From: Cyanidioschyzon merolae
Lineage: Eukaryota
Length of the DNA stretch: 64,000 nt
Assembly (NCBI GenBank): GCA_000091205.1
Contig: AP006502.2
Direction: 5' to 3' (one strand)
Part shown: positions 17,870 through 57,007 of the stretch, piece after piece
Layout of the letters: each line of letters opens with the position of its first letter
How positions within the stretch are numbered: the stretch's first letter is position 1
Position numbers and translations under genes: made by a program
Notes under the pieces: model-generated
The model's database searches: none
What the model was told of the DNA's origin: nothing
Seen by the model: only the letters and a program-made list of their open reading frames with translations

Positions 17870-19666
17870 TTACGGAGCTCGATCGTATTCAGCTCCGTCA
17901 ATGCTGAATATTTCGATGCCCTCCGATACGGCAATGCGTATATCCTCTAGGGCGTCGGCTACCTCACGGGCAGTGGAATCGCTTTCCGTTTCCAGATTGC
18001 GTCCACAGAAACGCGAGCTATCTCGCTCCGAGACAGAAGACGTCGACGAACTCAGTTTCACTTGATGATCGATCGGAAAGCTGCTATCATGGCCTCCTCT
18101 GGTGCGCCAGGCCTGGAGATACTCTCCAAAAGCATGCAGTGCGTGAGGAGCGACATAGGTATACGCTACAAGGTGTGTATCGGGGGCGCCTTCAGCCGGC
18201 ATCCAGTGCGGTGAATGGGGCGACACACTCCAGCTGTCGTCTCGGTGCGCTGTCGATGCGCTGGGGCTACCCATTCTCGAGCCAGAGTCCACAACCGGCG
18301 TGATCGGCGGGCGCTCCAGTCGCTCGCGGATTCGTTTCCAGGAAATTCCGCGGAACCAGCGATGGTGCTGTAAGCAGAGCGCATGACGAAGCCTCTCCTC
18401 CGGAGAGCGGCAGATTAACTGACGCACCAGCGACTGCGCCTCGGTGGAAACGTACGAGGGAAATTTGATTTTCGCTTTCATAATTCGCTTGTACAGAGCC
18501 ACGCGCGAGTGAACATTCTCTGGAGGCGCTTTACCGCCAGTCTTGTTATCGGCGGCTGCCTGGGCTGCAACTTTTGCTCGCCTTCCACGATCGCGTTTTC
18601 CAACCAGGCCTTGTGCTCGGACGGAAAAAGGCGGCTCCCCGGTAAGCATCTCGTATATTAAACATCCAAACGACCAGTAATCCGCTGCGAAAGAATGTCC
18701 CTCACGAGCGAGGAGCTCCGGAGCCATATAGTGCTCTGTACCGCACCAGGAATGGGTGAGAGAGCCGCTATCGACGAGATCAGATGCGTCTATCGACTCG
18801 AGCTGCGTCTGCATCGCACTGTCGTTTGGCGCTGATACGGCGTCTGCGTGGGCGGCCCCTGCGGTTCCACCGTTCCCTGGTGCACGGCGGAGGGATGCGT
18901 CGGCGCTCTGCGCCATGCCTGCACCTGTCTCAGTATCTAGGCGGCCCATGCCGGCTTTGCTGAGTCCAAAGTCGGTTAAGGCTACGTGGCCTTCATGGTC
19001 CAGGAGGACGTTCTCGGGCTTCAGATCCCGATGAACAATGCCGATTGAATGCAGGTGCTGTAAAGCAATGTACATTTCAGCTGCGTAGAAACGAGCAACT
19101 TCTTCACTGAAGAGCGCCTCCTTACGCAAATAATCCATAAGCGGGCCTCCTTGCAGATAATCCATGACCAGAAAAACTCTTGAAGACGTTTGAAATGCGC
19201 AATGCAGCCGTACAATAAATGGATGCACCGCACGCTGTTCGTTCCTCATATTGTTGTTCGTTCTTGGTGATCTACCGAGTCCCGGATTCAGCTCATAGCC
19301 GTGGTCCATTAAAAGCGCAAGGATGTCGCGCTCTACTCGAGCCTGAGCAGTGCCCCCGAAGCGGAGAAGCGCCTCTTTTTTCATCGATTTGATGGCGAAC
19401 AAACCACCCGTGGGTCGATATCGCGCCAGATAGACCTTGCCAAAGGCACCCGTTCCCAAGACGCTTAGGATCTGGAACAGCTCAAGGCGATGATGGTACA
19501 CTGCGGGGCCCGCGGTCCTATTCGATAGATTCGAAACAGCAGCAGCCGGCAGGTCACTCGATGCGGTCGTCGTCATCTGCAGCAGTGCACCTGCTGGGAT
19601 GAAGGCTGGCTCCTCATCTTCGCCAGCCTCGTGACGCTGCAGTGTCGCAATGGTCATGTGTGACAA
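17870..19666 (-). CDS. AGC-family Ser/Thr protein kinase (S6K/PKB-like) with a long insert between DFG and the activation loop.
   Basis: 'LGTGAFGKVYLAR', 'AIKSMKK', 'HRDLKPENVLLD', 'TDFGLSK', 'CGTEHYMAPELL', 'DYWSFGCLIYEMLTGEPPF', then a C-terminal AGC tail. Confidence 0.85.
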   Translation of the reverse strand: MSHMTIATLQRHEAGEDEEPAFIPAGALLQMTTTASSDLPAAAVSNLSNRTAGPAVYHHRLELFQILSVLGTGAFGKVYLARYRPTGGLFAIKSMKKEALLRFGGTAQARVERDILALLMDHGYELNPGLGRSPRTNNNMRNEQRAVHPFIVRLHCAFQTSSRVFLVMDYLQGGPLMDYLRKEALFSEEVARFYAAEMYIALQHLHSIGIVHRDLKPENVLLDHEGHVALTDFGLSKAGMGRLDTETGAGMAQSADASLRRAPGNGGTAGAAHADAVSAPNDSAMQTQLESIDASDLVDSGSLTHSWCGTEHYMAPELLAREGHSFAADYWSFGCLIYEMLTGEPPFSVRAQGLVGKRDRGRRAKVAAQAAADNKTGGKAPPENVHSRVALYKRIMKAKIKFPSYVSTEAQSLVRQLICRSPEERLRHALCLQHHRWFRGISWKRIRERLERPPITPVVDSGSRMGSPSASTAHRDDSWSVSPHSPHWMPAEGAPDTHLVAYTYVAPHALHAFGEYLQAWRTRGGHDSSFPIDHQVKLSSSTSSVSERDSSRFCGRNLETESDSTAREVADALEDIRIAVSEGIEIFSIDGAEYDRAP

Positions 19667-20528: not shown

Positions 20529-23500
20529 ATGTGTCGCATGGTTGCGTACTTTGGGCCGGCAATTTTAGCAGCGGACGTTGTGACGAGGCCGTCGCGCTCG
20601 ATCATTCGCCAATCGTACGATGCACGGGAGCGTCTTTGTTCCGCAGGCGAGTATGTGCCTGCCTCGCTAAACGGAGACGGCTATGGTATTGGTTGGTATA
20701 GCGACGACGGCGTACCTTGCGTCTACAAGTCCATCAGACCCGCTTGGAACGACGCAAACCTGCACCACCTTGCGGAAAAAGGTATCCGTTCGCACTTGCT
20801 GTTCGCGCACGTTCGCGCTGCCACGGCGGGAACTTCCGTTACCGAGGAATCCTGCCATCCCTTCGCCTATGGACGCTATTTATTCCAGCACAATGGAACT
20901 ATTGCAGGCTGGCATGACGGTCGAGTGCGTCGTGCGCTTCTCAATCAGCTGAATGATGAACTGTACGGTTACGCTGTTCGAAACGGTGCAAGCGATAGCA
21001 TCGTGGCCTTCGCGCTCTTCCTGAACCAGATGGATCGCGGCACATCTGAGCGCTATAGCGCTGCAGAGCTGCAGGAAATGCTGCTTCACACCATTGCACT
21101 GATTGTAGAGACCACGACGACGTGCCTGTTGGGGACAAACTCTCCGTGTTCGGATAGAACGCCCGCAAATCGGAAAAGCATGCCACGTGATGACGTGTTT
21201 CTTTTGAATTTCCTGGTAACGGACGGTGAGACGCTACTGGCAACCAAGTATGTACGTGGACTCCGGGACCTGGATGCTCCGGCAGCTAGTCTGTATTTCG
21301 GAGCAGCGTCGTCGTACGGGCCAGTCACGCATCACGTTGGAACCGGTGCCGAAGACTATGCCTTCTCGTATCGAGCAGCAACCTGGGCGGGGGTCGTTGT
21401 TGTAGCCAGTGAGCCGCTGACGTCGAACCCGTGCGACTGGGTCCCGCTCCCTCGCAACTCGATACTGGTGGCTACCGCAGATCGACATTTGCTTGTGGAA
21501 AAGATGCCCGATCTACTGATGGGCCGCGAATCACCGCGAGCGGGTTCGCGTTTGTCGCCCAAGTTGCTGCCCCAGTCTAGTGCGCTTGTGCAAGCGTTGC
21601 ACGCTTTCGCAGGATCCACAGCGACGCGTTCCATTGCTGATCGCGGGGATCCGTTGCCGCCTATGAGGAGCGCAACTGCTGCGGCTCACGTCAGCTGGAG
21701 CCGACAACAGCAACACCAGGAGCAAGAGCGGCGCAAGAAACCTCTCTTACGGAGCAGTCAACAGGAACTAAGTAGCGCTGGAAGTGGCGCAATATCCACC
21801 GATTTGATTGAAATCGATGAATCAGATCGCTTGTTCACGATCCGTAGCAGCCGAGTGCTTTGCATGACGACAGTGCCTGTGCAGGAGGATGCACTGCCAC
21901 AAATAGCGCAGGAGCTGGAAACGATGCCATTATCTGCAGCGACGGCAACGAGTAATCGGTCTGGATGCACCGGGTCGCAACGTCAAGCCCTGCTCGTATG
22001 CGGTACTGGTGATGGTCATATGTATGCACTGCACCAGATATCGGGTCTGCTGGCGTCGGATAGTTTCGTCTCTGCGGATGGACGTGATATTCTGGGGATC
22101 GCTCGCTGGCAATGCAACAACCTCGCTGCGTACTTTGAGCAGAAGGGCATGCAACCGTCGGCAACGTTCACGGTCTGTGCGGCAGCAGATAACACCGTTC
22201 GCATGCATCGTTGGACTGTGGACGGTATAGAGGAGATTGCGAACTTTTTCTGCGGTACTGCAACGGGACACCCACTCTGTCTGGTCACCGATCAAAGTGC
22301 CGTGTATCTTGGGTTTCAAGACTGTTCGGTTCGTCGCCTCGATATGCAGGGACTCCTCGGCACGGTGAAAGTGGAACCAGAGGCTCGTCCGGAGGGAGCG
22401 GCTCACGTGCCTGTACTATCCGAACAGGCGCTTTTTCGCCGTCTGGGTCAGCGCGGAGAGCATAGCGACTTGGCACGCGCAAGTCAGCACTGTGGACCTG
22501 TTTACTGTTTGGCGCTTCACTCGAAAACTCGCCGACTCTTTTCTGGTTCCGGTGATGGAACCATTGCGGTCTGGAATACTGAAAGTGAAGAGCACGAAGC
22601 AACCCTGCGTGGCCATTGCGGCGCGGTACTTGCACTGAAACTCGACGAAAATGTGGATATCCTCTTCTCTGGGGCCAGGGATCGACGGATTCGTGTTTGG
22701 GATGTCGCTCGGAGTGCGAATTATGTCTGCCGACGAATTCTTCTCAGTTGGGACTATCACTGCGATGATATCTGTGCCCTAGAACTGTCCGAGTCATTCC
22801 TGTTTTCTGCATCCACCGACGGCGTCGTGGTGCTGTGGAGTCGCCCGGACCTCGCGGCGTTGGCACTGTTGCGTCTGCCGTCCGGAACGCTGTTGACGTC
22901 GCTGTGCGTCACACCGGACGCCTCAGCGATGCGTCCTGCAGCTACTTCGGATGCTATGAGCACGTCCGGTATGCTGTTTGCGGCGACCAGCGACGGCAGT
23001 GTCTACGGTTGGCATCTAGGCGCTTCGGGGTCATTGTACGGACGCATTTACGGGACGGATGCCGCTGACCTGGAAGGTACATCGCGGGTGCCTACGAAAA
23101 CGCTGCCCACAACAGCGGCATCATCTTGCGCTGGCTCTCTCGAAGCCGCAACACCGAATTCCATGCTGTTTTCGCTCAGCTCGCCACGTATTCGACTTGG
23201 AGATCCCGAATGGTCGAGTGTTGCGGCATTTGAGAGAGCCCTACGGACAGCGATTCGTTTTCGATCCATCGCTGTGGATACGAAGCAGTCCAACTTCCGT
23301 GAAGAGTCTTTTCATTGTGCGCGCTGGTTCTCGCGTCTTCTGGAGAACCTCGGAGCCGACCTGCGCATCGCACAACCAGTGGATGGAAAGAATCCCGTCA
23401 TACTCGCTCGTTTTGTCGATATCATTGGATGCAAGGGGCACGCGTGTCGCCCCGGGCCTCCCGCTTTCCCGTCGTCGCTGGCTCGAGCGCGTGTCCAGCA

Positions 23501-25103
23501 TCGCCATACCGTAGACGCAGCGCATGACGGTGAGCGTGAACATCAGGCACAGCAAGTGCGACGGCAGCATTTCCGTCAAACCGTTGTATTCTACGGGCAC
23601 TACGATGTCGTTCCCGCCCACCGGGAAGACGGCTGGTCTCACGATCCCTTTGATCTGCAGGTTTCGAATGGCTACTTTTATGGCAGGGGATGCACAGACA
23701 ACAAGGGCCCGATCCTTGCGATGATCTTCGCGATTGTTGATTTGCTCCAGGAGCAGCAACAGTGGCGGCATCAGCAGCGAAACATTCCAGCTGATCACGA
23801 GTTGGCGCCTCGCACAGCAGCAAACACGCTGACGAGTTCGACGAGGACTGTTCCGCCGCCTGCGGAGAGCGTGCATGCGGCAGTCTCGGCAGGTGCCTGC
23901 GACAACATCCATGGAGCATGTGACGATTTCGAACGCTCAACGAACGTGGTCCTCTTACTCGACGGTGAAGGCGAGGCCTCTAGTGCCGGCTTCCGTGAGA
24001 CCATCGCTCTGTTTAGAGACTGGATCGTGGGCAAGGATCTCGATCAGCGGCAAGCGGGCCAGCAGCTCGTTCCGAATGGCGACCCGCGTCCCGCACCGAA
24101 CGAGCCTGTTCCCCAGGTGGTTTGCGTCCTGCACGCGAACAGTCTCTGGGTTGATGATGTGCGTCCCTGTATCACGTACGGAATGCGGGGCCAGATCCTG
24201 CTCTCTGTGGAAATAACCGGTCCTTCGGGGAACTTGCATTCCGGCTTCGATGGTGGTGCTGTTCTGGAGCCAGCCGCTGACCTGTTGGCGATTCTGGCTA
24301 CACTGAGCGATGCCGGAGGCACCGCGCGTGTACCCGGCTTCTACGATGATGTGCGAGAGCTCACGCCCAGCGAGCGCTCCTGGTTGTCCGCAGTCCATTT
24401 CGATCGGCAAGCTTACCTCCAGCACTTGGGTGTTTCCCGTCTCGCAGCGGATAACGACTTGGATTTGCTGCAGAAACGCTGGTGTCAGCCGTGTCTCTCG
24501 ATCACAGAGCTGTCAACGAGCGCGAACGCAGTTGCAAATGGAGCTGCTTCGGCTGCGAGAAGCAGCACTGGTCGACTGGGTGCGATCTCTGCGCTCATAC
24601 CGCAGCGCGCGCAGGCAACGGTGGCGATTCGGACGGTCCCGAATCAGAGCCCGGAAAAGCTCCGAGCTGCAGTGGAGCAGCATCTGCACTTCGAGTTTGC
24701 GAAAAGACGCTCTCCGAACCAGCTGCGGATCACATGCACCAAACAGGGTGACTGGTGGCTCGGCGATATTCACGGGGAACGGTACCCGTCGTCGTCGTCG
24801 TCGTCGTCGAGGCAAGTCGAACAGCGTACCGGCTGTGAACAGCGCGCGCGACAGCGAGTCTTCGCCGTCTCTGAACGTGCCATCGAGCGCGTCTGGGGCG
24901 TGCAGCCGCTCTATGTTCGAGAGGGCGGCAGCATGCCGCTAACAGCGTGGCTAGAGCAGACACTAGAGGCGCCTGCGATCCACTTGCCTCTGGGGCAGTC
25001 CAGTGATGCACCGCACCTGCCGAACGAGCGCATCCGGGTGTTGAACTTGTTCCACGGTCGCATGATTCTCGGTGATATTGTTCGTTCGCTGGCGGTGCAA
25101 TGA
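20529..25103 (+). CDS. 1524-aa three-domain fusion. N-terminal class-II (Ntn, Cys2) glutamine amidotransferase of DUG3/YafJ type. Central WD40 repeats. C-terminal M20A (CNDP/DUG-like) metallopeptidase. This looks like a DUG3-DUG2 Rosetta-stone fusion of the glutathione-degradation complex.
   Basis: N-terminus 'MCRMVAYFG...GDGYGIGWY' (Cys2 nucleophile, GATase-2). WD40 units such as 'GSGDGTIAVWNTESEEHEATLRGHCGAVLALK...IRVWDV'. M20 hallmark 'VVFYGHYDVVPAHREDGWSHDPFDLQVSNGYFYGRGCTDNKGPILAMIFAI'. Single uninterrupted ORF. Confidence 0.8.
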   Translation: MCRMVAYFGPAILAADVVTRPSRSIIRQSYDARERLCSAGEYVPASLNGDGYGIGWYSDDGVPCVYKSIRPAWNDANLHHLAEKGIRSHLLFAHVRAATAGTSVTEESCHPFAYGRYLFQHNGTIAGWHDGRVRRALLNQLNDELYGYAVRNGASDSIVAFALFLNQMDRGTSERYSAAELQEMLLHTIALIVETTTTCLLGTNSPCSDRTPANRKSMPRDDVFLLNFLVTDGETLLATKYVRGLRDLDAPAASLYFGAASSYGPVTHHVGTGAEDYAFSYRAATWAGVVVVASEPLTSNPCDWVPLPRNSILVATADRHLLVEKMPDLLMGRESPRAGSRLSPKLLPQSSALVQALHAFAGSTATRSIADRGDPLPPMRSATAAAHVSWSRQQQHQEQERRKKPLLRSSQQELSSAGSGAISTDLIEIDESDRLFTIRSSRVLCMTTVPVQEDALPQIAQELETMPLSAATATSNRSGCTGSQRQALLVCGTGDGHMYALHQISGLLASDSFVSADGRDILGIARWQCNNLAAYFEQKGMQPSATFTVCAAADNTVRMHRWTVDGIEEIANFFCGTATGHPLCLVTDQSAVYLGFQDCSVRRLDMQGLLGTVKVEPEARPEGAAHVPVLSEQALFRRLGQRGEHSDLARASQHCGPVYCLALHSKTRRLFSGSGDGTIAVWNTESEEHEATLRGHCGAVLALKLDENVDILFSGARDRRIRVWDVARSANYVCRRILLSWDYHCDDICALELSESFLFSASTDGVVVLWSRPDLAALALLRLPSGTLLTSLCVTPDASAMRPAATSDAMSTSGMLFAATSDGSVYGWHLGASGSLYGRIYGTDAADLEGTSRVPTKTLPTTAASSCAGSLEAATPNSMLFSLSSPRIRLGDPEWSSVAAFERALRTAIRFRSIAVDTKQSNFREESFHCARWFSRLLENLGADLRIAQPVDGKNPVILARFVDIIGCKGHACRPGPPAFPSSLARARVQHRHTVDAAHDGEREHQAQQVRRQHFRQTVVFYGHYDVVPAHREDGWSHDPFDLQVSNGYFYGRGCTDNKGPILAMIFAIVDLLQEQQQWRHQQRNIPADHELAPRTAANTLTSSTRTVPPPAESVHAAVSAGACDNIHGACDDFERSTNVVLLLDGEGEASSAGFRETIALFRDWIVGKDLDQRQAGQQLVPNGDPRPAPNEPVPQVVCVLHANSLWVDDVRPCITYGMRGQILLSVEITGPSGNLHSGFDGGAVLEPAADLLAILATLSDAGGTARVPGFYDDVRELTPSERSWLSAVHFDRQAYLQHLGVSRLAADNDLDLLQKRWCQPCLSITELSTSANAVANGAASAARSSTGRLGAISALIPQRAQATVAIRTVPNQSPEKLRAAVEQHLHFEFAKRRSPNQLRITCTKQGDWWLGDIHGERYPSSSSSSSRQVEQRTGCEQRARQRVFAVSERAIERVWGVQPLYVREGGSMPLTAWLEQTLEAPAIHLPLGQSSDAPHLPNERIRVLNLFHGRMILGDIVRSLAVQ

Positions 25104-39480: not shown

Positions 39481-41802
39481 TCAAGCGAATGACATCGGCG
39501 GCTCCGCTGACTTGCTGTCCGGTGCCTCGCCGCGCTGTTCGCAGGACTGGAGCCAATTTACGAGAATTTCATTCACTTGCTCCGGGACTTCATCGTGTGG
39601 ACAATGGCCAGCACGGAGCTGCACAACCTGCACTTCCGGATGAATCGCCGCAATCTGCTCTGCCCGCTTACGGGCGTCATTCAGCGGATCCAGGATGCCC
39701 TGGATCAACAGCACCGGCACTGAATCAAGGGCACGCAGGAGCTCCGGTATCGGACGCGACGGGGGCAGGCGGAAGCCCGACGCGATCACACTGGAAGCAC
39801 CTGGATCCAGACTGTGGCGATATATGATCGACTCCATGTGCAGGGCAGCATCCGGTCGCACAGGGTACACTTTCAGCAGCGTGCTCCGGATACCAAACTG
39901 CAAGTATCGGAGTAGAACCTCACCAACAATGCGGGAGGCTAGTGGTTGGGCCAGCAACCGCCGTAACCTGGAATCGTTGGATGCACGGTCGGCGTTTTTA
40001 ACCGGCTCGAGTGGCCCCGCCGGGTTGATCAGGACGATGCCTTTGCAGAGCGTCGTTGGACGAGGCGAGGCCGAAGCCTGTACCAATTCCATCCGGTGAT
40101 CTGCGGCAAAACTGAGACTCACGTACGCTCCGATCGAGTTGCCGACAATGAACACAGGTCGACGCACAATCTGCAGCACAAAATCCCGGACCTGCCGCTC
40201 CCAGAGCTCCTGTGTGTAGCGCGTAATCGGTTTGGTGCTTCGTCCAAAACCAAGAAGGTCCAAACAGAACACCTGGTACCCTTGATCTGCGAGAAAAGAT
40301 ACATTTCGCTCCCAGTGCTCTATGGACGCTCCAAAACCATGAATAAACAGGACTGCGGGAGCATCCCGCGTGCTCGATCCGCTCTGTGAGAAACGCACCG
40401 GTAAGCCGTTCCATCGCCAATAGTGCCAGGGCCGCTGGCTCGCCTTGTCGTACTGCGACAGAAACAGGTGCCAGCTGAGACTACGGATAAGAGCGCGCGC
40501 CTCCCGGTGTCGCGGTGAGTCCGTCCAGAGCGCCAGCATCCGGCGCCGATACCGCCGCGCTGCATCAATTTCCGCCAGCACTTTTCGTGGAGAAACGCAG
40601 CCAAAATGCAGGGCATACGCAAAACTGCGAAGAAAATCGCTCTCCTGATGCGCGTCAGGGCCTCGTAGGTAACGCCGCAGGAAATCGATTGCAGCAGTTT
40701 CACCGCCAGCGTCCAGCGACGTCGCAACACACATTCGCTTATCCTCTTCGATGCGTTGCAGAAAAGGATAGTCAGCATATTCAAGCGGAAACCAGCTGGG
40801 ACTGGTTTCCCACAGGTGATCGCTCGGGGCATCGAGCTCGTAACTTGCGACGAATCTCGTCTCCGGTGCGTTCTCCCTCGCGCAGTCCCAAAGCGCTAAC
40901 AGATCATTTTCAGTGGGCCTGTGCATCATGGGGCGCCAATGCTCGCGCTGCAAAATGCTGAACGTATCTCGCCCGAGAAACGTAGATGTTGATGGCGATC
41001 GCGAGCCTCTTGTGTTTTCACGAGTGGTACGATGCGGGGCGCCTAGACTCCAGAAACGAAATCTAATACCCAAGCGTTCGCATTCTCGGAAGCATCGCTG
41101 ACTCGATATGCACCAGTCGTCTTCGACGAGTACTTGTGCATTCGCAAAGCGACCGCAGAGCACGGCGAGCTCCCGAGGCGCCGGACCGTTCAGGAGCAGC
41201 AGATCGGCCTGGCCTTGCGTCGCTGAGCGGATCGTCTCACGCAGCGCTGCAACGGATTCGCGGAGATATTTTTGCTCCTCTGGCGTGTACGTCTCGAGTT
41301 CGCGTTTGTCCATGATGTAAACGAACGCAATTCGCAACGAGTTTTCCATGCCATGTCTGTCGTCTGAGCGGCGTGCCGGTGCAGTTTTCTGGGAGGCGAT
41401 ATGCGTTCGCAGGTACTGCAACCCGGGGTGATCATGAACCCGAAGGTCTCTGCGAAACCATACAATCCAATTGACAGTCATTTCAGCAGCAATTGGACGC
41501 TTCTCGTCTTCGAGTGCATGGTCCGGAGCGAGTTGCTGGGGACGACTCCCGTGCCCGCGAGCTGGCGAATCTCCGAGCCCGTGCACGCACGACAACAAGT
41601 CAAGAAGTTTGGACTTTGGCCCGATAATGTTGCACGCTCGGGAGCAGTGCCAAGTCTTCCACGGTTTGTGAGCAAAGTGCGTTGGCGCAACCTGGCTACA
41701 ACGCTGTGTGCTCGCTGTGTGCGCTGGCGTCGCGTGCTGCCAAATTCTCGAACGCCCTAGGCTACAGCCTGCAAACATGCTTCCCGAAGCACACAGACCC
41801 AA
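39481..41802 (-). CDS. Photolyase/cryptochrome N-terminal (alpha/beta) domain plus a truncated FAD-binding region, fused to a C-terminal alpha/beta-hydrolase-fold domain (773 aa).
   Basis: 'NWIVWFRRDLRVHDHPGLQ' (photolyase N-terminal domain). 'GGETAAIDFLRRYL..FAYALHFGCVSPRKV' (start of the FAD domain). Then 'VLFIHGFGASIEHWERNV...VFCLDLLGFGRS...FIVGNSIGAYVSL' (GxSxG nucleophile elbow). Confidence 0.8.
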   Translation of the reverse strand: MGLCASGSMFAGCSLGRSRIWQHATPAHTASTQRCSQVAPTHFAHKPWKTWHCSRACNIIGPKSKLLDLLSCVHGLGDSPARGHGSRPQQLAPDHALEDEKRPIAAEMTVNWIVWFRRDLRVHDHPGLQYLRTHIASQKTAPARRSDDRHGMENSLRIAFVYIMDKRELETYTPEEQKYLRESVAALRETIRSATQGQADLLLLNGPAPRELAVLCGRFANAQVLVEDDWCISSQRCFRECERLGIRFRFWSLGAPHRTTRENTRGSRSPSTSTFLGRDTFSILQREHWRPMMHRPTENDLLALWDCARENAPETRFVASYELDAPSDHLWETSPSWFPLEYADYPFLQRIEEDKRMCVATSLDAGGETAAIDFLRRYLRGPDAHQESDFLRSFAYALHFGCVSPRKVLAEIDAARRYRRRMLALWTDSPRHREARALIRSLSWHLFLSQYDKASQRPWHYWRWNGLPVRFSQSGSSTRDAPAVLFIHGFGASIEHWERNVSFLADQGYQVFCLDLLGFGRSTKPITRYTQELWERQVRDFVLQIVRRPVFIVGNSIGAYVSLSFAADHRMELVQASASPRPTTLCKGIVLINPAGPLEPVKNADRASNDSRLRRLLAQPLASRIVGEVLLRYLQFGIRSTLLKVYPVRPDAALHMESIIYRHSLDPGASSVIASGFRLPPSRPIPELLRALDSVPVLLIQGILDPLNDARKRAEQIAAIHPEVQVVQLRAGHCPHDEVPEQVNEILVNWLQSCEQRGEAPDSKSAEPPMSFA

Positions 41803-45245: not shown

Positions 45246-47383
45246 CTAGACGAAACGTCTCCGACTGACGTGCAGACGCCTGCCCGTCTTTTTGGACCGG
45301 CCATCTACTACTGCTTCCATCTTCTTCTCATATAATTCAACTTTGAGAGGTTGTCCAATAAAGTTTTCTCTTGTCAGCTCTGGAGGTCTCTTCTCCAGCA
45401 CCGCACATCTCCTTATATTGATTGCGGCGATAAAATCTCGGTTCACAAACTCCATACGTTTCTTGCCATCATTCCTTGTACTCACCAGTGCAAGCAATCC
45501 TCGAACATTCTCCCTCCTTTCCATTTCCTCTTCCGTCAGCGGCCCGTACTTTTTTATGTTCCCAGGGCTCTATTGGCAATTTTCTATCTCCACTCTCTGA
45601 AGTACGCACCCCAGTTCATGGTGTGTATACGAGGTTCGAAACTCATCAACAGGTATCGTGGCGAAACGCCTTGCGCATTCCCTGTACGTTCTTGTCGTTG
45701 GAGTTGGCGTACAACCTTTTTTAGGCGCCAAGCACCCTGCCCCGTACGCTACTACGAGCCTTTGAGTCTTGTCCTCTTTGACGGCACTCAACTAATTGAA
45801 AAAGTTGGCAAACGCCCGCTGCCTCCCACCGTATAGATTCATTCGCAAACGAGCCCACCAGGGCTTGGTATACTCCTCCCACAGCGCATCCCAATGGGCA
45901 ACACGAACTTGCATGAATTTCAGAAAAGCTTCAAAGTCCGCTCCGCGGCTCGTCACCTCGCTCAAAGCTTCCAGGTGATCCTTCATTCCTGCATTCCGTA
46001 TCTCAATTTTCTTCCTCGCATTCGTTATACCCGATTCTCGATAATATATCGCTCTCGAGAGCCTCATCAGACGCATGTCTTTCTGACGTAAGTTGCCGTC
46101 AGCACCATCTTCCGCACGCTTCGGTGCTGCGATGGTTATGATATTCGTATTCCCGGGGCCCGCGCCAACGACAAGGTCGTTATCCTGCACTTTCTGTGTA
46201 TCAGGGCCCGCCTTCTTGTTTTCTTCATGCTTCGCCGCGCCAACCATAAAGGCGTTATCCTGCACCTCCTGCATCACAGGATCCGCTTCCTTCCCATCTT
46301 CATCCTTCGTCACGTCAACGACAAGGTCGTTATCCGGCATCATCTGCGTCGCATGATCCTCCTCTTTGTTTTCTTCATGCTTCGCCGCGTCAACGACAAG
46401 GTCGTCATCCTGCACTTCCAGTGTGGCAGGTTCGGCGTCCTTCTCATCTTCATGCTTCGCCGAGGGCGGGACCAAACGATCTGCCTTCAATCGCCGATTG
46501 TGTGCACACAAGTCTACTCCATCGGTTTCGATCATCCCAGTGAATACATTTTGTTTGCTCTTTTTGAGACGTTTGAAATCGAAGATATTCTTCCAGTGCG
46601 TCTCCCGGTTTTCGCCAGTGAAGTCCTCCCTGCGAACATTGAACTCCGGACAGATCTCCCTCATGATGCCATGAGGGACGCCAGAGTCGATAGTCACAAA
46701 ATGTGACTTGGTGTTGCATAATGGAACAACGTCGAAGCGCTTCCCCATTAGGAGAGCCTTCCGTCTCTCCCATTCTTCATTTTTTCCTCACTCAGCTTTA
46801 TTTCCGCCTTGCGTTCGAGCTCTCGGTCCAGAAACGCGAACTAACATAGGATGAGGCGATAGTATCTTTCCTTACCTTTTTTCAACTTTGATATCTTGTC
46901 TGTTGGATTCACCAGCCCCATGACTGCACGGTCTTCTTGTATAAGCGCACGGATTACAGAAGCTTCATTCGTGCTCTCTTTTGACGCCTTCTTGTCGACA
47001 AATTCGACCTCATCTTCATGCTTGCGATCGTTCGTGATGCCATTGATAATCGCCCATTTTCCTTTGCAAGAGATGCCCGAGTAGAGTGCAAACACGGCGC
47101 GTATCATGAAACGTTCGAGGTTCATTGTCAAATAGTTCTTCAGATTCGTGAGGTACTTCATCGCCCCATAGTCGTAAATATCCCGGTCACACTTGTATCG
47201 AGTACCGTTGAAGCTGTAAAAGGGATGTTTTTCGTGCAAGGCATGCACTAGCACATTTTCCCCCTGCGCTTCCGCTGTACCAAGTATCAGGTGAGGAATA
47301 AAGGTCTTATCGAAAAACACGTCCGGAATCTCGACCGTTTCCATGTACGTCACGTCTTTGTAGATCTCCCTCGCCAAATGCAT
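45246..47383 (-). mobile_element. Near full-length TnpB/Fanzor-like (OMEGA-family RuvC nuclease) element. The coding region (~690 codons) is disrupted by one frameshift (about 46841/46748) and two in-frame TAG codons. Best treated as a recently inactivated copy, or an intron-containing one.
   Basis: Minus-strand reading 47383->45246 gives, in order: RuvC-I-like '[11 protein letters not shown]'; an acidic tandem-repeat insertion; RuvC-II-like 'LSEVTSRGA'; 'ALWEEY...LRMNLYGG...RLVVAYGAG'; 'IPVDEFRTSYTHHELGC' (TnpB 'VdpxyTSqxCsxCG' position, zinc finger degenerate); RuvC-III 'KKRMEFVNRDFIAAINI'. The whole region is AT-richer than the flanking host genes. Confidence 0.6.
46100..46450 (-). repeat. 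Coding tandem repeat (about 75-78 bp / 25 aa, about 4 units) inside the Fanzor-like ORF.
   Basis: Protein repeats '[21 protein letters not shown]', '[59 protein letters not shown]'. The + strand ORF track shows the same periodicity (HKGVILH... / NDKVVI...). Confidence 0.7.
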
Positions 47384-51803: not shown

Positions 51804-53792
51804 TCAGAGCGCCGCGCGCAAATGCTCTTTGCGGGCCGCTCCCGCGGAAAGTTTCTCGGCAATATGGCTGAATTGTTTCGTGTTCTGCTCAATATACTTT
51901 CGGGTAACTTGTACGAGTTCCTCTAGCTTTTCTATCCGGGACTCGTCCATACTCAGCGGCGCTACATCGGGGTTCAGACGGAAATACATATCGCGTCCAT
52001 GCGTCAGATCCAGGATCGCGTGGTGCACAGCCTCGGTATCGGTCGCGCTGCTCAACAGGGTGCGCGCCAACTCAAAGATGCTATCACCACTGGAGCCGGC
52101 AGTGGCTACTCGCTGGTTTGGCTCGCTCACGAGACGCGGATCGCAACGCCCGGTTCCAACACTTACCAACACATCAATCGGTAGGTCTGGCCAGAGCAGC
52201 TTGGCCTCGTGGCACGCAATAGCCGTCGGGTTGTTCACCAGGATTGCTCCGTCACAGAACGTTTCGCTGCCGCAGCGGAAAGCGTCGAAGTAGGTCGGTG
52301 CTGCTGATGTCGCGCGCAAGGCCTCGTACACGCGATGGTGGGCTGCATATCGATACCTCGGCTTCGATTCGGGTGGCGGGGCGTAATTTGTATGAAGAAA
52401 CGGGGCCGCGGGATTCTCACTTACAATCGTCGAGACACAGAATACGCACGGCGGATCGTCAGCGATATGCGCTACTGCCCGCGAATCAATGAGGTTCATT
52501 TCACCGGCGAACGCTCGAAAGAAGCGCTCGAGCGCCGCGCTGTCGTAGTAGCCACGACTGAAAAGGAGGCGACCCATGCCCAACCAGCGAACAGCTCGAC
52601 TGGTGGGCGTGCTGAAAACCTTGCCACAAAACTCCCTGTAGAGAAGTTCGCACTCTGCGAGGGATTTGCGAGCGATGCAGAGGGCCACGGCCAAGATACC
52701 GCCGGCTGAGGTACCAGCAACGAGGTCGAATAGCTGGTGGATAGGTTGTCCGGTGCGTCGTTCCAGCTCTTTGAGGATTTCAATCGAGACAAGAGCTCGG
52801 GCGCCGCCGCCGTCCAGCGTGAGTATCCGGATACCGTGCGGGCGAGGTCGTCGGAACAAGTTCGGGAGCCTGCCGAAGATGCGCTCGCGCGCCGCTCGTC
52901 CATGATCACCGTAGCGACGCTCGAGGCCAAGTGCTGCTACCAGCCGTCGACAAGCAGCAGTTACACGATGTGCACCGAGCAACTTCAGTTTCGGTGTTGG
53001 CGCGTCCGTGCCCGATGCATTTCGATGCGCTGCCGTTGGCTTGACCAGGAACTCTTTTGACGGAGTTTCCTGAAGGATGCGATCCAAACGCTGAACAATA
53101 CCACTCGTTGCGACGATGAGCAACGCAAACTCTCGATCACATGCGGCAATCGTGCCGAGACAGAGGGCGCTGCTCTCGACGCAGTTTGCGTCAGCGGCAG
53201 CGGCGAATATCCTGCAGAACTGTTGGAGCAGGGCACTGCGACCCACCTGATGCAACGTATCCGATTGGCACCAGTTGAGAATCGTGTGCGCGTGGCTCAA
53301 AGCCGGCGCCAGGAGCCTTTCATGGATACGAGACTGGGTACCTCCAAGTGGTCGGCGTTCGTGGGTAAGGTTTGGAGGAATGCCGTCCCCCGCGTGTCCA
53401 ATAAGAGCAGAAAAGCAGCGATCAAGCAACGCGAAACCGCAAGAGCTGACGAAAGCAGCTAGTAAGCTCCTATCCCCGCCGACCACAAGCTGTGCCGTAT
53501 CCGAGAGCACTGTTAAAAACTGGCGAACTGTTTCTATATGCCACTCTGGTGTGTCGCGAAGTCGCGAGAGCTCCCGCCGCACACGCCTGCAATCGTTGCC
53601 CGGCATTTTCTGCCCGCAGAACGAGGAACTCACACGGCCTACTACCAGCTGCCGTTTACATAGCGCAACTGGTAACCCAGCAAAGGCTCTTGAGTGCAGT
53701 GGTCGACCAAACTGCGCAGTGTGCAAAAGTCTCAACAACCCGTTCAGCCAGTAAAACGGGTATGCTAATGTGCCGAAGCCAAACTTTCCCAA
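51804..53792 (-). CDS. Patatin-like phospholipase (iPLA2-like) with a ~290-aa helical N-terminal region.
   Basis: 'ILTLDGGGARALVSIEIL' (oxyanion GGGxR), 'VAGTSAGGILAVAL' (GxSxG), 'DGAILVNNP' (catalytic Asp). Confidence 0.85.
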   Translation of the reverse strand: MGKFGFGTLAYPFYWLNGLLRLLHTAQFGRPLHSRAFAGLPVALCKRQLVVGRVSSSFCGQKMPGNDCRRVRRELSRLRDTPEWHIETVRQFLTVLSDTAQLVVGGDRSLLAAFVSSCGFALLDRCFSALIGHAGDGIPPNLTHERRPLGGTQSRIHERLLAPALSHAHTILNWCQSDTLHQVGRSALLQQFCRIFAAAADANCVESSALCLGTIAACDREFALLIVATSGIVQRLDRILQETPSKEFLVKPTAAHRNASGTDAPTPKLKLLGAHRVTAACRRLVAALGLERRYGDHGRAARERIFGRLPNLFRRPRPHGIRILTLDGGGARALVSIEILKELERRTGQPIHQLFDLVAGTSAGGILAVALCIARKSLAECELLYREFCGKVFSTPTSRAVRWLGMGRLLFSRGYYDSAALERFFRAFAGEMNLIDSRAVAHIADDPPCVFCVSTIVSENPAAPFLHTNYAPPPESKPRYRYAAHHRVYEALRATSAAPTYFDAFRCGSETFCDGAILVNNPTAIACHEAKLLWPDLPIDVLVSVGTGRCDPRLVSEPNQRVATAGSSGDSIFELARTLLSSATDTEAVHHAILDLTHGRDMYFRLNPDVAPLSMDESRIEKLEELVQVTRKYIEQNTKQFSHIAEKLSAGAARKEHLRAAL

Positions 53793-55837: not shown

Positions 55838-57007
55838 TTAGGTTTCAACCTCGACGGCCACCATGTTGTACGCCTCCTCACGTTGCTTGTCGAAGAGCGC
55901 CGAGGTCAAGTAGCGTTCACCGAACGATGGAATGATGACGACGATATTCTTGCCTTTCATCTCGGGTCGCCGACCAAGCTCGAGCGCCGCAACCACAGCA
56001 GCCCCACTGGAGATACCACACAGAAGACCTTCTTCAACTGCGAGACGTCGTGCCATTTCAATTGAATCCATGCTCGTAACCTGTTTCACCTCGTTGTATA
56101 TCTTGGTGTCCAAAATTCCTGGAACGAAACCAGCTCCAATGCCTTGTATTTTGTGCGGGCCCGGTCGGCCGCCACTGAGCACCGGTGACTCCGCCGGCTC
56201 TACCGCCATGATATAGACATGCGGGTTTTGCTCGCGCAGGTAACGGCCAGCACCAGTAACCGTGCCACCGGTCCCGACTCCAGCGACAAAAGCATCCACC
56301 TTGCCACCGGTTGCGGCCCATATCTCAGGCCCAGTTGTCTCGTAGTGCGCCTTCGGGTTATCCGGATTATTGAATTGTTGAAGCATGTACGCATTTGGAG
56401 TGGTGTGAAACAACTGCTCGGCTTTGGCAACAGCTCCTTTCATTCCTTTGGCGGCTGGCGTGAGTACCACTTCGGCGCCGAAAGCGCGCAGCACCATTCG
56501 CCGCTCTATGGACATAGAGTCTGGCATCGTCAGAATCAGACGGTAACCACGAGCTGCAGCGAGATATGCCAGGGCAATTCCCGTATTGCCTGATGTTGGT
56601 TCGATGAGCACCGTTTTTCCGGGCTGGATGTCGCCCCGCTTTTCAGCCTCGACGATCATGTACTTGCCGATCCGATCTTTTACGGACGAGCAGGGCTCCA
56701 TGGACTCCAGCTTACATAGTATATGCGCTTGGACCCCCTCCTCTTCCGGAATTTTCTTGAGCTCCACAATCGGTGTATTCCCGACTAGATCGGACACGTC
56801 GCGAGCCAACGCGACCGAGGGTGGCGCAGTCAAGGCCAGCTGCACGCGCTGGCGAGCACGCGGTGAACGACGAGCGTATCCGAGAATCCTGGTCTGCTCG
56901 GGCTTCGCCCGCACAAACGTACTATTCTTTTTTCGATTCCGGAGAGTAGCTTGCGCAGCTTTGAGTGAACACGGCACCAGAACGTACATTGCGTTAGACA
57001 CAAGCAT
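55838..57007 (-). CDS. OASTL: Cysteine synthase / O-acetylserine (thiol) lyase (PLP-dependent) with a ~60-aa N-terminal presequence.
   Basis: '[10 protein letters not shown]', PLP lysine in 'CSSVKDRIG', '[12 protein letters not shown]', '[15 protein letters not shown]', '[10 protein letters not shown]'. Confidence 0.95.

Follow-up and report, generated by a model that had tools for sequence, protein, structure and literature searches.

The window analysed here is a stretch of 64,000 nucleotides of nuclear DNA (contig AP006502.2, assembly GCA_000091205.1) from the intron-poor red alga Cyanidioschyzon merolae, with a GC content of about 55%. Our subject is a single long open reading frame (ORF) in it that appears to join counterparts of the yeast glutathione-degrading proteins Dug3p and Dug2p in one chain. 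The ORF runs on the + strand from an ATG at 20529 to a TGA at 25101–25103, and its 1524 codons form a reading frame that is unbroken in the raw DNA. The deduced product is identical at 1524 of 1524 residues (100%) to C. merolae 10D BAM83269.1 / XP_005539305.1, encoded on a 1.62-Mb chromosome and named by its depositors 'large fused protein of putative glutamine amidotransferase and glutamate carboxypeptidase'. Near-identical proteins are encoded on many independent metagenome contigs. The original prediction, made from the sequence before any database search, had described one 1524-aa ORF with glutamine amidotransferase (GATase), WD40 and M20 modules in this order; the raw DNA, the Pfam matches and the identity to XP_005539305.1 all bear this out. 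With domain boundaries taken from two AlphaFold2 models, one covering the GATase and propeller (aa 1–935) and the other the WD40 and M20 parts, the following features were assigned, where Ntn stands for N-terminal nucleophile and pLDDT for the predicted local distance difference test:

20529–25103, + strand: complete intronless ORF, 1524 aa plus stop (C. merolae 10D XP_005539305.1)
20529–21533, + strand: class-II (Ntn) glutamine-amidotransferase-fold domain of the Dug3/EgtC type, aa 1–335 (Pfam, residue conservation, mostly high pLDDT, EgtC fold match)
20532–20534, + strand: codon of the catalytic Cys2 (conserved)
20814–20816, + strand: codon of Arg96, in 'HVRA' (conserved)
20892–20897, + strand: codons of Asn122-Gly123, in 'HNG' (conserved)
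20994–20996, + strand: codon of Asp156, in 'SDS' (conserved)
21534–21794, + strand: linker, aa 336–422, with a helix at aa 352–371 followed by disordered low-complexity sequence (pLDDT <50 for aa 368–422)
21795–23033, + strand: WD40 beta-propeller, aa 423–835 (Pfam, solved-structure search, models, Foldseek)
23034–23198, + strand: disordered linker between propeller and M20 domain, aa 836–890 (pLDDT <50)
23199–25100, + strand: M20A domain of the CNDP2/Dug1/Dug2 type with lid/dimerisation subdomain, aa 891–1524 (structure search, Pfam, model)
23970–23972, + strand: Gly1148 codon GGC, at the position of the M20 general-base Glu, CNDP2 Glu166 (HMMER alignment to 4ruh, multiple alignment)
24138–24140, + strand: Asn1204 codon AAC, at the position of a metal-ligand Asp, CNDP2 Asp195 (HMMER alignment to 4ruh, multiple alignment)

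The largely disordered 87-residue linker between the GATase domain and the propeller might raise the suspicion that adjacent Dug3-like and Dug2-like genes had been merged by an error of gene modelling or assembly. Such an artefact is effectively refuted and retains next to no probability: the frame is open throughout, the RefSeq protein is identical, independent metagenome contigs carry near-identical proteins, and the same fused order recurs in dozens of distant eukaryotes, transcriptomes included. The three-domain ORF is a real, conserved gene, neither arisen by chance nor produced by merging gene models.

At the 5' end, ATG-TGT (20529–20534) encodes Met1-Cys2, placing the nucleophile Cys directly after the initiator Met. 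Since no in-frame ATG lies upstream and stop codons are found 25 and 27 codons before the ATG, the product starts with Met-Cys, as a class-II Ntn amidotransferase requires, and the predicted N-terminus 'MCRMVAYFG' is confirmed. Pfam GATase_4 matches aa 48–193 with 49.0 bits (gathering cutoff, 23) and GATase_6 scores 32.1 bits (cutoff, 27). Cys2, Arg96, Asn122-Gly123 and Asp156 are intact, and these columns are conserved across the fused, fungal and bacterial relatives in the alignment. When the GATase domain alone was used as the query, the top matches were partial proteins from Nannochloropsis and Guillardia, and the best named stand-alone relatives were fungal proteins of ~300 aa annotated as 'glutamine amidotransferase subunit' or DUG3 (188–216 bits, 37–41% identity).

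In NCBIfam the N-terminus matches the EgtC model TIGR03442 best, with 157.8 bits. As this is below the equivalog cutoff of 218.65, membership in EgtC was rejected. EgtC is also the closest solved fold in a Foldseek search of the PDB (target TM score 0.85–0.89, with 0.89 for 4zfk, at 25% identity). Both matches speak for the possibility that the protein is a gamma-glutamyl hydrolase acting on a substrate other than glutathione, such as an EgtC-like gamma-glutamyl-cysteinyl-histidine intermediate or a phytochelatin-type or other gamma-Glu conjugate, and yeast Dug2/3 itself takes other gamma-Glu peptides. However, besides the score under the cutoff, the biochemically characterised and solved EgtC reaches 64 bits against the N-terminal domain, far less than the fungal Dug3-type proteins, and the Dug2-type WD40-M20 module to which this domain is covalently joined suggests a place in the DUG system. 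Eukaryotic ergothioneine synthesis (Egt1/Egt2), moreover, is not known to need an EgtC step. A substrate other than glutathione is therefore regarded as unlikely, although it keeps some weight.

The middle module foreseen as WD40 is confirmed by Pfam WD40 (59.9 bits; cutoff, 27), with repeats around aa 640–800, and by a modelled propeller of about 28 beta-strands, i.e. about seven blades, of which only those at aa 650–780 are canonical enough for the Pfam model. The model of the GATase and propeller has a predicted TM score (pTM) of 0.82. Since this value was reached although ~150 of the 935 residues are disordered, the two domains appear to be confidently placed against each other, and they are predicted to form a compact unit. 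The WD40+M20 model has a pTM of 0.60, which indicates a looser tether between propeller and M20 domain. The Foldseek search of the PDB returned single-domain matches only (propellers and EgtC), none of them to an assembly resembling Dug2-Dug3.

Pfam Peptidase_M20 matches aa 1020–1078 with 52.3 bits (cutoff, 24.6). GATase_6, WD40 and Peptidase_M20, which are among the families proposed for a domain search, all score above their Pfam gathering values. The nearest solved structures of the C-terminal domain are CN1, CNDP2 and yeast Dug1 (E about 1e-46), the alignments spanning both the catalytic and the lid subdomains, and in the model the domain carries disordered inserts at about aa 971–1002, 1091–1132, 1343–1350 and 1422–1427. 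The M20 hallmark motif named in the original prediction, 'YGHYDVVPA...GYFYGRGCTDNKGP', is present at aa 1022–1061, but the full catalytic set is not: His1024, Asp1026, Asp1057, Glu1149, His1237 and His1496 are kept, whereas Gly1148 replaces the general base. A check of the metal-binding residues likewise gave a divided result, with four of the five ligands kept and the Asp195-equivalent changed to Asn1204.

These replacements were followed through 120 M20 domains, including 72 from fused proteins, 11 from WD40-M20 proteins and 29 from canonical free dipeptidases. At the position equivalent to CNDP2 Asp195, the canonical free dipeptidases have Asp, whereas all 11 WD40-M20 proteins have Asn and the 72 fused proteins have Asn or, in rare cases, Ser; Asp never occurs in either group. 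The general-base Glu is kept in the fungal-type WD40-M20 proteins (one fused-type fragment aside), but about two-thirds of the fused proteins have lost it and carry mostly Gly, or else Gln, His, Ala, Val or Asn, in its place. This pattern suggests a repeated relaxation of active-site constraint after a shared Asp-to-Asn change. Membership among active M20A dipeptidases was rejected on account of Gly1148 and Asn1204 and of the score against the NCBIfam dipeptidase model PRK08201 (160.2 bits; equivalog cutoff, 441). Since the general base and one metal ligand are replaced, the M20 domain most likely has no working peptidase and appears to be a pseudo-peptidase serving as a non-catalytic scaffold.

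The same data bear on a different proposal, that the enzyme is bifunctional, the GATase domain removing glutamate and the M20 domain hydrolysing Cys-Gly as a built-in Dug1. It could draw on the nearest solved structures, on the six retained active-site residues and on the database label 'Cys-Gly metallodipeptidase DUG1' given to some fused homologs. Against it stand the two substitutions, the first of which recurs as Glu loss among the fused homologs and the second of which is common to fungal Dug2-like proteins, as well as the low dipeptidase-model score. Yeast Dug2p, too, is said (work of Kaur et al. in 2012) to be without peptidase activity, binding Dug3p via its WD40 domain and dimerising via its M20 domain. 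A built-in Dug1 is thus quite improbable. In public records the 'DUG1' name is found on a cyanidiophyte relative and on proteins of Diplonema papillatum and Picochlorum (P0240, P0241, P0386); since the fused M20 domains examined have Asn or Ser instead of Asp at the Asp195-equivalent, the label was probably transferred in error on the strength of M20 similarity.

A WD40 propeller followed in the same chain by a C-terminal M20A domain is the Dug2 architecture, and the relatives of the M20 domain agree with this. A search with the M20 domain only retrieved fragments of fused proteins first and then fungal WD40+M20 proteins of 812–943 aa, which have this architecture; the domain scored 206–252 bits against the fungal WD40+M20 proteins and no more than 169 bits against free (bacterial) dipeptidases. 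In bootstrapped neighbour-joining trees on Kimura distances, which are rough distance trees here and below, the eukaryotic WD40-linked M20 domains stood apart from the free dipeptidases in 100 of 100 bootstraps with each of two taxon sets. With fungal Dug3-type proteins as the best named relatives of the GATase domain and the M20 domain grouping with the fungal WD40+M20 proteins, the proposed identity of the ORF as Dug3 plus Dug2 is supported by sequence comparison. As the N-terminus did not fall into another Ntn family, nor the M20 domain into a non-DUG clade, this identity stands. Automatic labels on some of the fused homologs read 'putative di- and tripeptidase DUG2' or K14262/DUG2 (KEGG).

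The fused form is not confined to C. merolae. A search with the full-length protein yielded 35 homolog clusters (90% identity level) with the identical three-domain order, and the GATase domain, used as query in an exhaustive HMMER scan, gave 3135 relatives at E <= 0.001. The best 150 representatives of the latter (50% identity level) included 28 GATase-WD40-M20 proteins, 8 GATase-M20 proteins whose propeller is too divergent for detection, and 7 truncated GATase-WD40 proteins (about 43 of 150 together). The fused form was found in 1) red algae: Cyanidium, Porphyridium, Gracilaria, Agarophyton and, as a fragment, Hildenbrandia; 2) green and streptophyte algae: Cymbomonas, Volvox, Picochlorum, Chlorokybus and Mesostigma; 3) the chromerids Vitrella and Chromera, the coccidia Eimeria, Cyclospora and Besnoitia, and the dinoflagellate Gymnodinium; 4) the diplonemids Diplonema, Rhynchopus, Lacrimia and Namystynia and the euglenid Entosiphon; and 5) the amoebozoan Soliformovum, the apusomonad Thecamonas and the choanoflagellate Salpingoeca. 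The partial proteins from Nannochloropsis and Guillardia, which cover the GATase domain only, are putative members of this architecture. Among the matches examined the fused form was apparently absent from animals and land plants, for which no dedicated search was made. By these homologies the fused gene is pan-eukaryotic, occurring across most major eukaryote groups, so that the fusion, which had been presented as a feature of this organism, is neither peculiar to it nor new, being already contained in the product name of the gene. Alveolate fused proteins can be two to three times the length of the algal ones, as in Besnoitia (3500 aa, P0305), Chromera (2084 aa, P0255) and Eimeria (1967 aa, P0288), and two further long ones have 3089 aa (P0330) and 3013 aa (P0337).

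The trees also bear on the direction of the change between one gene and two. A single exclusive clade of fused proteins, obtained for the GATase domain in 99 of 100 bootstraps with limited sampling, was dropped after four lineages (Salpingoeca, Thecamonas, Soliformovum and Entosiphon) had been added, monophyly of the fused proteins then being recovered in 1.5% of bootstraps for the GATase and 13% for the M20 domain. With this enlarged sampling, the trees of both domains place the Dug3-like and Dug2-like proteins of fungi nested among the fused ones. Since the nearest outgroups of the fungi also carry the fused gene, an originally fused gene that split in the fungal stem appears at least as likely as independent fusion elsewhere. 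The two separate fungal genes may therefore be the derived form, and the polarity may be the reverse of the classic Rosetta stone. The fuller proposal, with about an even chance of being correct, is that the fused gene was present in or near the last eukaryotic common ancestor, that fungal DUG3 and DUG2 arose by its fission, and that cytosolic DUG-type glutathione degradation would be pan-eukaryotic rather than fungus-specific.

The DUG pathway and its (Dug2p-Dug3p)2 complex are reportedly due to studies by Ganguli (2007) and Kaur (2012). In yeast, both glutathione and gamma-Glu-Met are cleaved by Dug2p/Dug3p (PMC7617739), which also carries out gamma-glutamyl transfer (PMC6508711); Dug3p is inactive unless bound to Dug2p (bioRxiv 10.1101/2023.02.02.526638). 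The system has been called 'restricted to fungi', 'fungus-specific' or 'fungal-specific' (PMC7340319, PMC9012958, PMC6508711), and a study of Euglena assigns a single transcript contig to the 'GSH degradosome' (PMC6351624). No published description of the fused form was found in the literature searched. It had been suggested that the fusion supports a functional link between its parts; because the Dug2-Dug3 interaction was already known experimentally, the fusion adds no new link.

Our preferred reading, which we consider probable on the sequence evidence, is that the C. merolae protein is a single-chain counterpart of the yeast (Dug2p-Dug3p)2 glutathione-degrading enzyme and acts as a cytosolic gamma-glutamyl hydrolase. 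We propose that i) Met1 would be removed, leaving Cys2 of the Ntn amidotransferase-fold domain as the nucleophile, ii) Cys2 would split glutathione, and probably further gamma-Glu peptides, at the gamma-glutamyl bond, glutathione yielding glutamate and Cys-Gly, iii) the WD40 propeller would pack on the GATase domain within the chain, taking over the role of the Dug2p WD40 domain in binding and activating Dug3p, iv) the degenerate M20A domain would serve as a non-catalytic dimerisation scaffold, the active form being a homodimer equivalent to (Dug2-Dug3)2, and v) a separate Dug1/CNDP2-type dipeptidase would split Cys-Gly. A cytosolic location is expected because a cleavable targeting peptide is incompatible with an N-terminal Cys nucleophile. 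The further reactions of yeast Dug2/3, on gamma-Glu-Met and in gamma-glutamyl transfer, make a wider range of gamma-Glu substrates plausible.

Several points weigh against this reading. The function of the C. merolae protein, like that of all fused homologs, is predicted from sequence and models, and orthology to S. cerevisiae Dug2p (YBR281C) and Dug3p (YNL191W) rests on named fungal homologs and on architecture. Bacterial class-II GATases are almost as similar to the GATase domain (35–39% identity), and the grouping of the eukaryotic (fused and fungal) GATases against them is weak (61–67% bootstrap). The interface between GATase and propeller is deduced from the pTM alone. Finally, since Asn is able to coordinate metal and four of five ligands are kept, the M20 domain may possess residual metal or ligand binding.

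In algae and many protists, gamma-glutamyl transpeptidase and ChaC/GGCT enzymes are commonly held responsible for glutathione turnover. If a single-chain Dug3-Dug2 enzyme operates across most eukaryotic supergroups, it would add a third, cytosolic route of glutathione degradation there. The DUG pathway, usually called fungus-specific, is probably widespread. With an ancestral fused gene, the pathway would be active in algae, in alveolates, in euglenozoans, amoebozoans and choanoflagellates; coccidian parasites (Eimeria, Cyclospora, Besnoitia) are among the organisms with a putative DUG route. The interaction of the two subunits and the annotation of the gene as a fusion were known before, and this is no new kind of system; what is new is that the DUG enzyme evidently extends beyond the fungi and that the fungal split is possibly a derived state. 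The single-chain form from this thermo-acidophilic alga may also be a convenient target for the first structure of a GATase-WD40-M20 assembly.

The genes flanking the ORF encode TFIIH Ssl1, phosphoribosyl pyrophosphate (PRPP) synthetase, a protein kinase, ORC4, an aldo-keto reductase, argininosuccinate synthase, ZPR1, a patatin and a PALP enzyme. These neighbours within the window are unrelated housekeeping genes and show no functional link to the fused gene, which is what one would expect in a eukaryote. The upstream neighbour (17870–19666, – strand) is a protein kinase of 598 aa whose Pkinase match is split into two stretches, which suggests a long insert within the kinase domain. A 773-aa ORF at 39481–41802 (– strand) is another multi-domain fusion, with an N-terminal DNA_photolyase domain (aa 113–236) and a C-terminal alpha/beta-hydrolase domain (aa 482–745). 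A patatin-like phospholipase (51804–53792, – strand) and a PALP-family pyridoxal-phosphate enzyme (55838–57007, – strand; 389 aa, 263 bits) lie about 27–32 kb downstream of the DUG-like gene, no link being implied; the PALP family includes cysteine synthase, cystathionine beta-synthase and threonine dehydratase. A tandem repeat at 46160–46462, made up of 4 copies of a 75-bp (25-codon) unit with 73% matches, lies within a 318-aa ORF (45792–46748, – strand) that has no Pfam match. It sits in the lowest-GC and most strand-skewed stretch of the window (46–48 kb; GC 0.476, GC skew –0.16, AT skew –0.18).

Among known systems, Francisella Cgc1 is a functional analogue, being a cytoplasmic GATase-family enzyme that splits glutathione to Glu and Cys-Gly (bioRxiv 10.1101/2023.02.02.526638), but its GATase fold is of class I (triad) and bears no relation to the class-II Ntn fold, and it has no WD40 or M20 partner. 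Mycobacterial EgtC (PDB 4zfj/4zfk/4zfl), a gamma-glutamyl-hercynylcysteine sulfoxide hydrolase, shares the fold and the Ntn Cys nucleophile of the N-terminal domain and is likewise a gamma-glutamyl-cleaving hydrolase, not a biosynthetic amidotransferase; it differs in standing alone, as a protein of about 230 aa that lacks WD40 and M20 partners, and its sequence similarity is low. Compared with Dug1p, CNDP2 and CN1 (PDB 4g1p, 4ruh, 3dlj), the C. merolae M20 domain aligns over the catalytic and lid subdomains and keeps, in addition to four of the five metal ligands, the HSG histidine of the dimer partner, whereas it lacks the general-base Glu and the Asp195-equivalent ligand and sits behind a WD40 propeller. 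With the fungal WD40+M20 proteins it has both the M20 clade and the Asp-to-Asn ligand change in common, differing from these Dug2-like proteins in the loss of the general-base Glu (Gly1148) and in several long disordered M20 inserts. The closest counterpart is S. cerevisiae (Dug2p-Dug3p)2. Although the C. merolae protein is one polypeptide, with Dug3 preceding Dug2 and a largely disordered linker between them, both systems consist of the same modules, a class-II Ntn GATase with Cys2, a WD40 propeller and an M20A domain, and would be expected to share the same chemistry, hydrolysis of the gamma-glutamyl bond.

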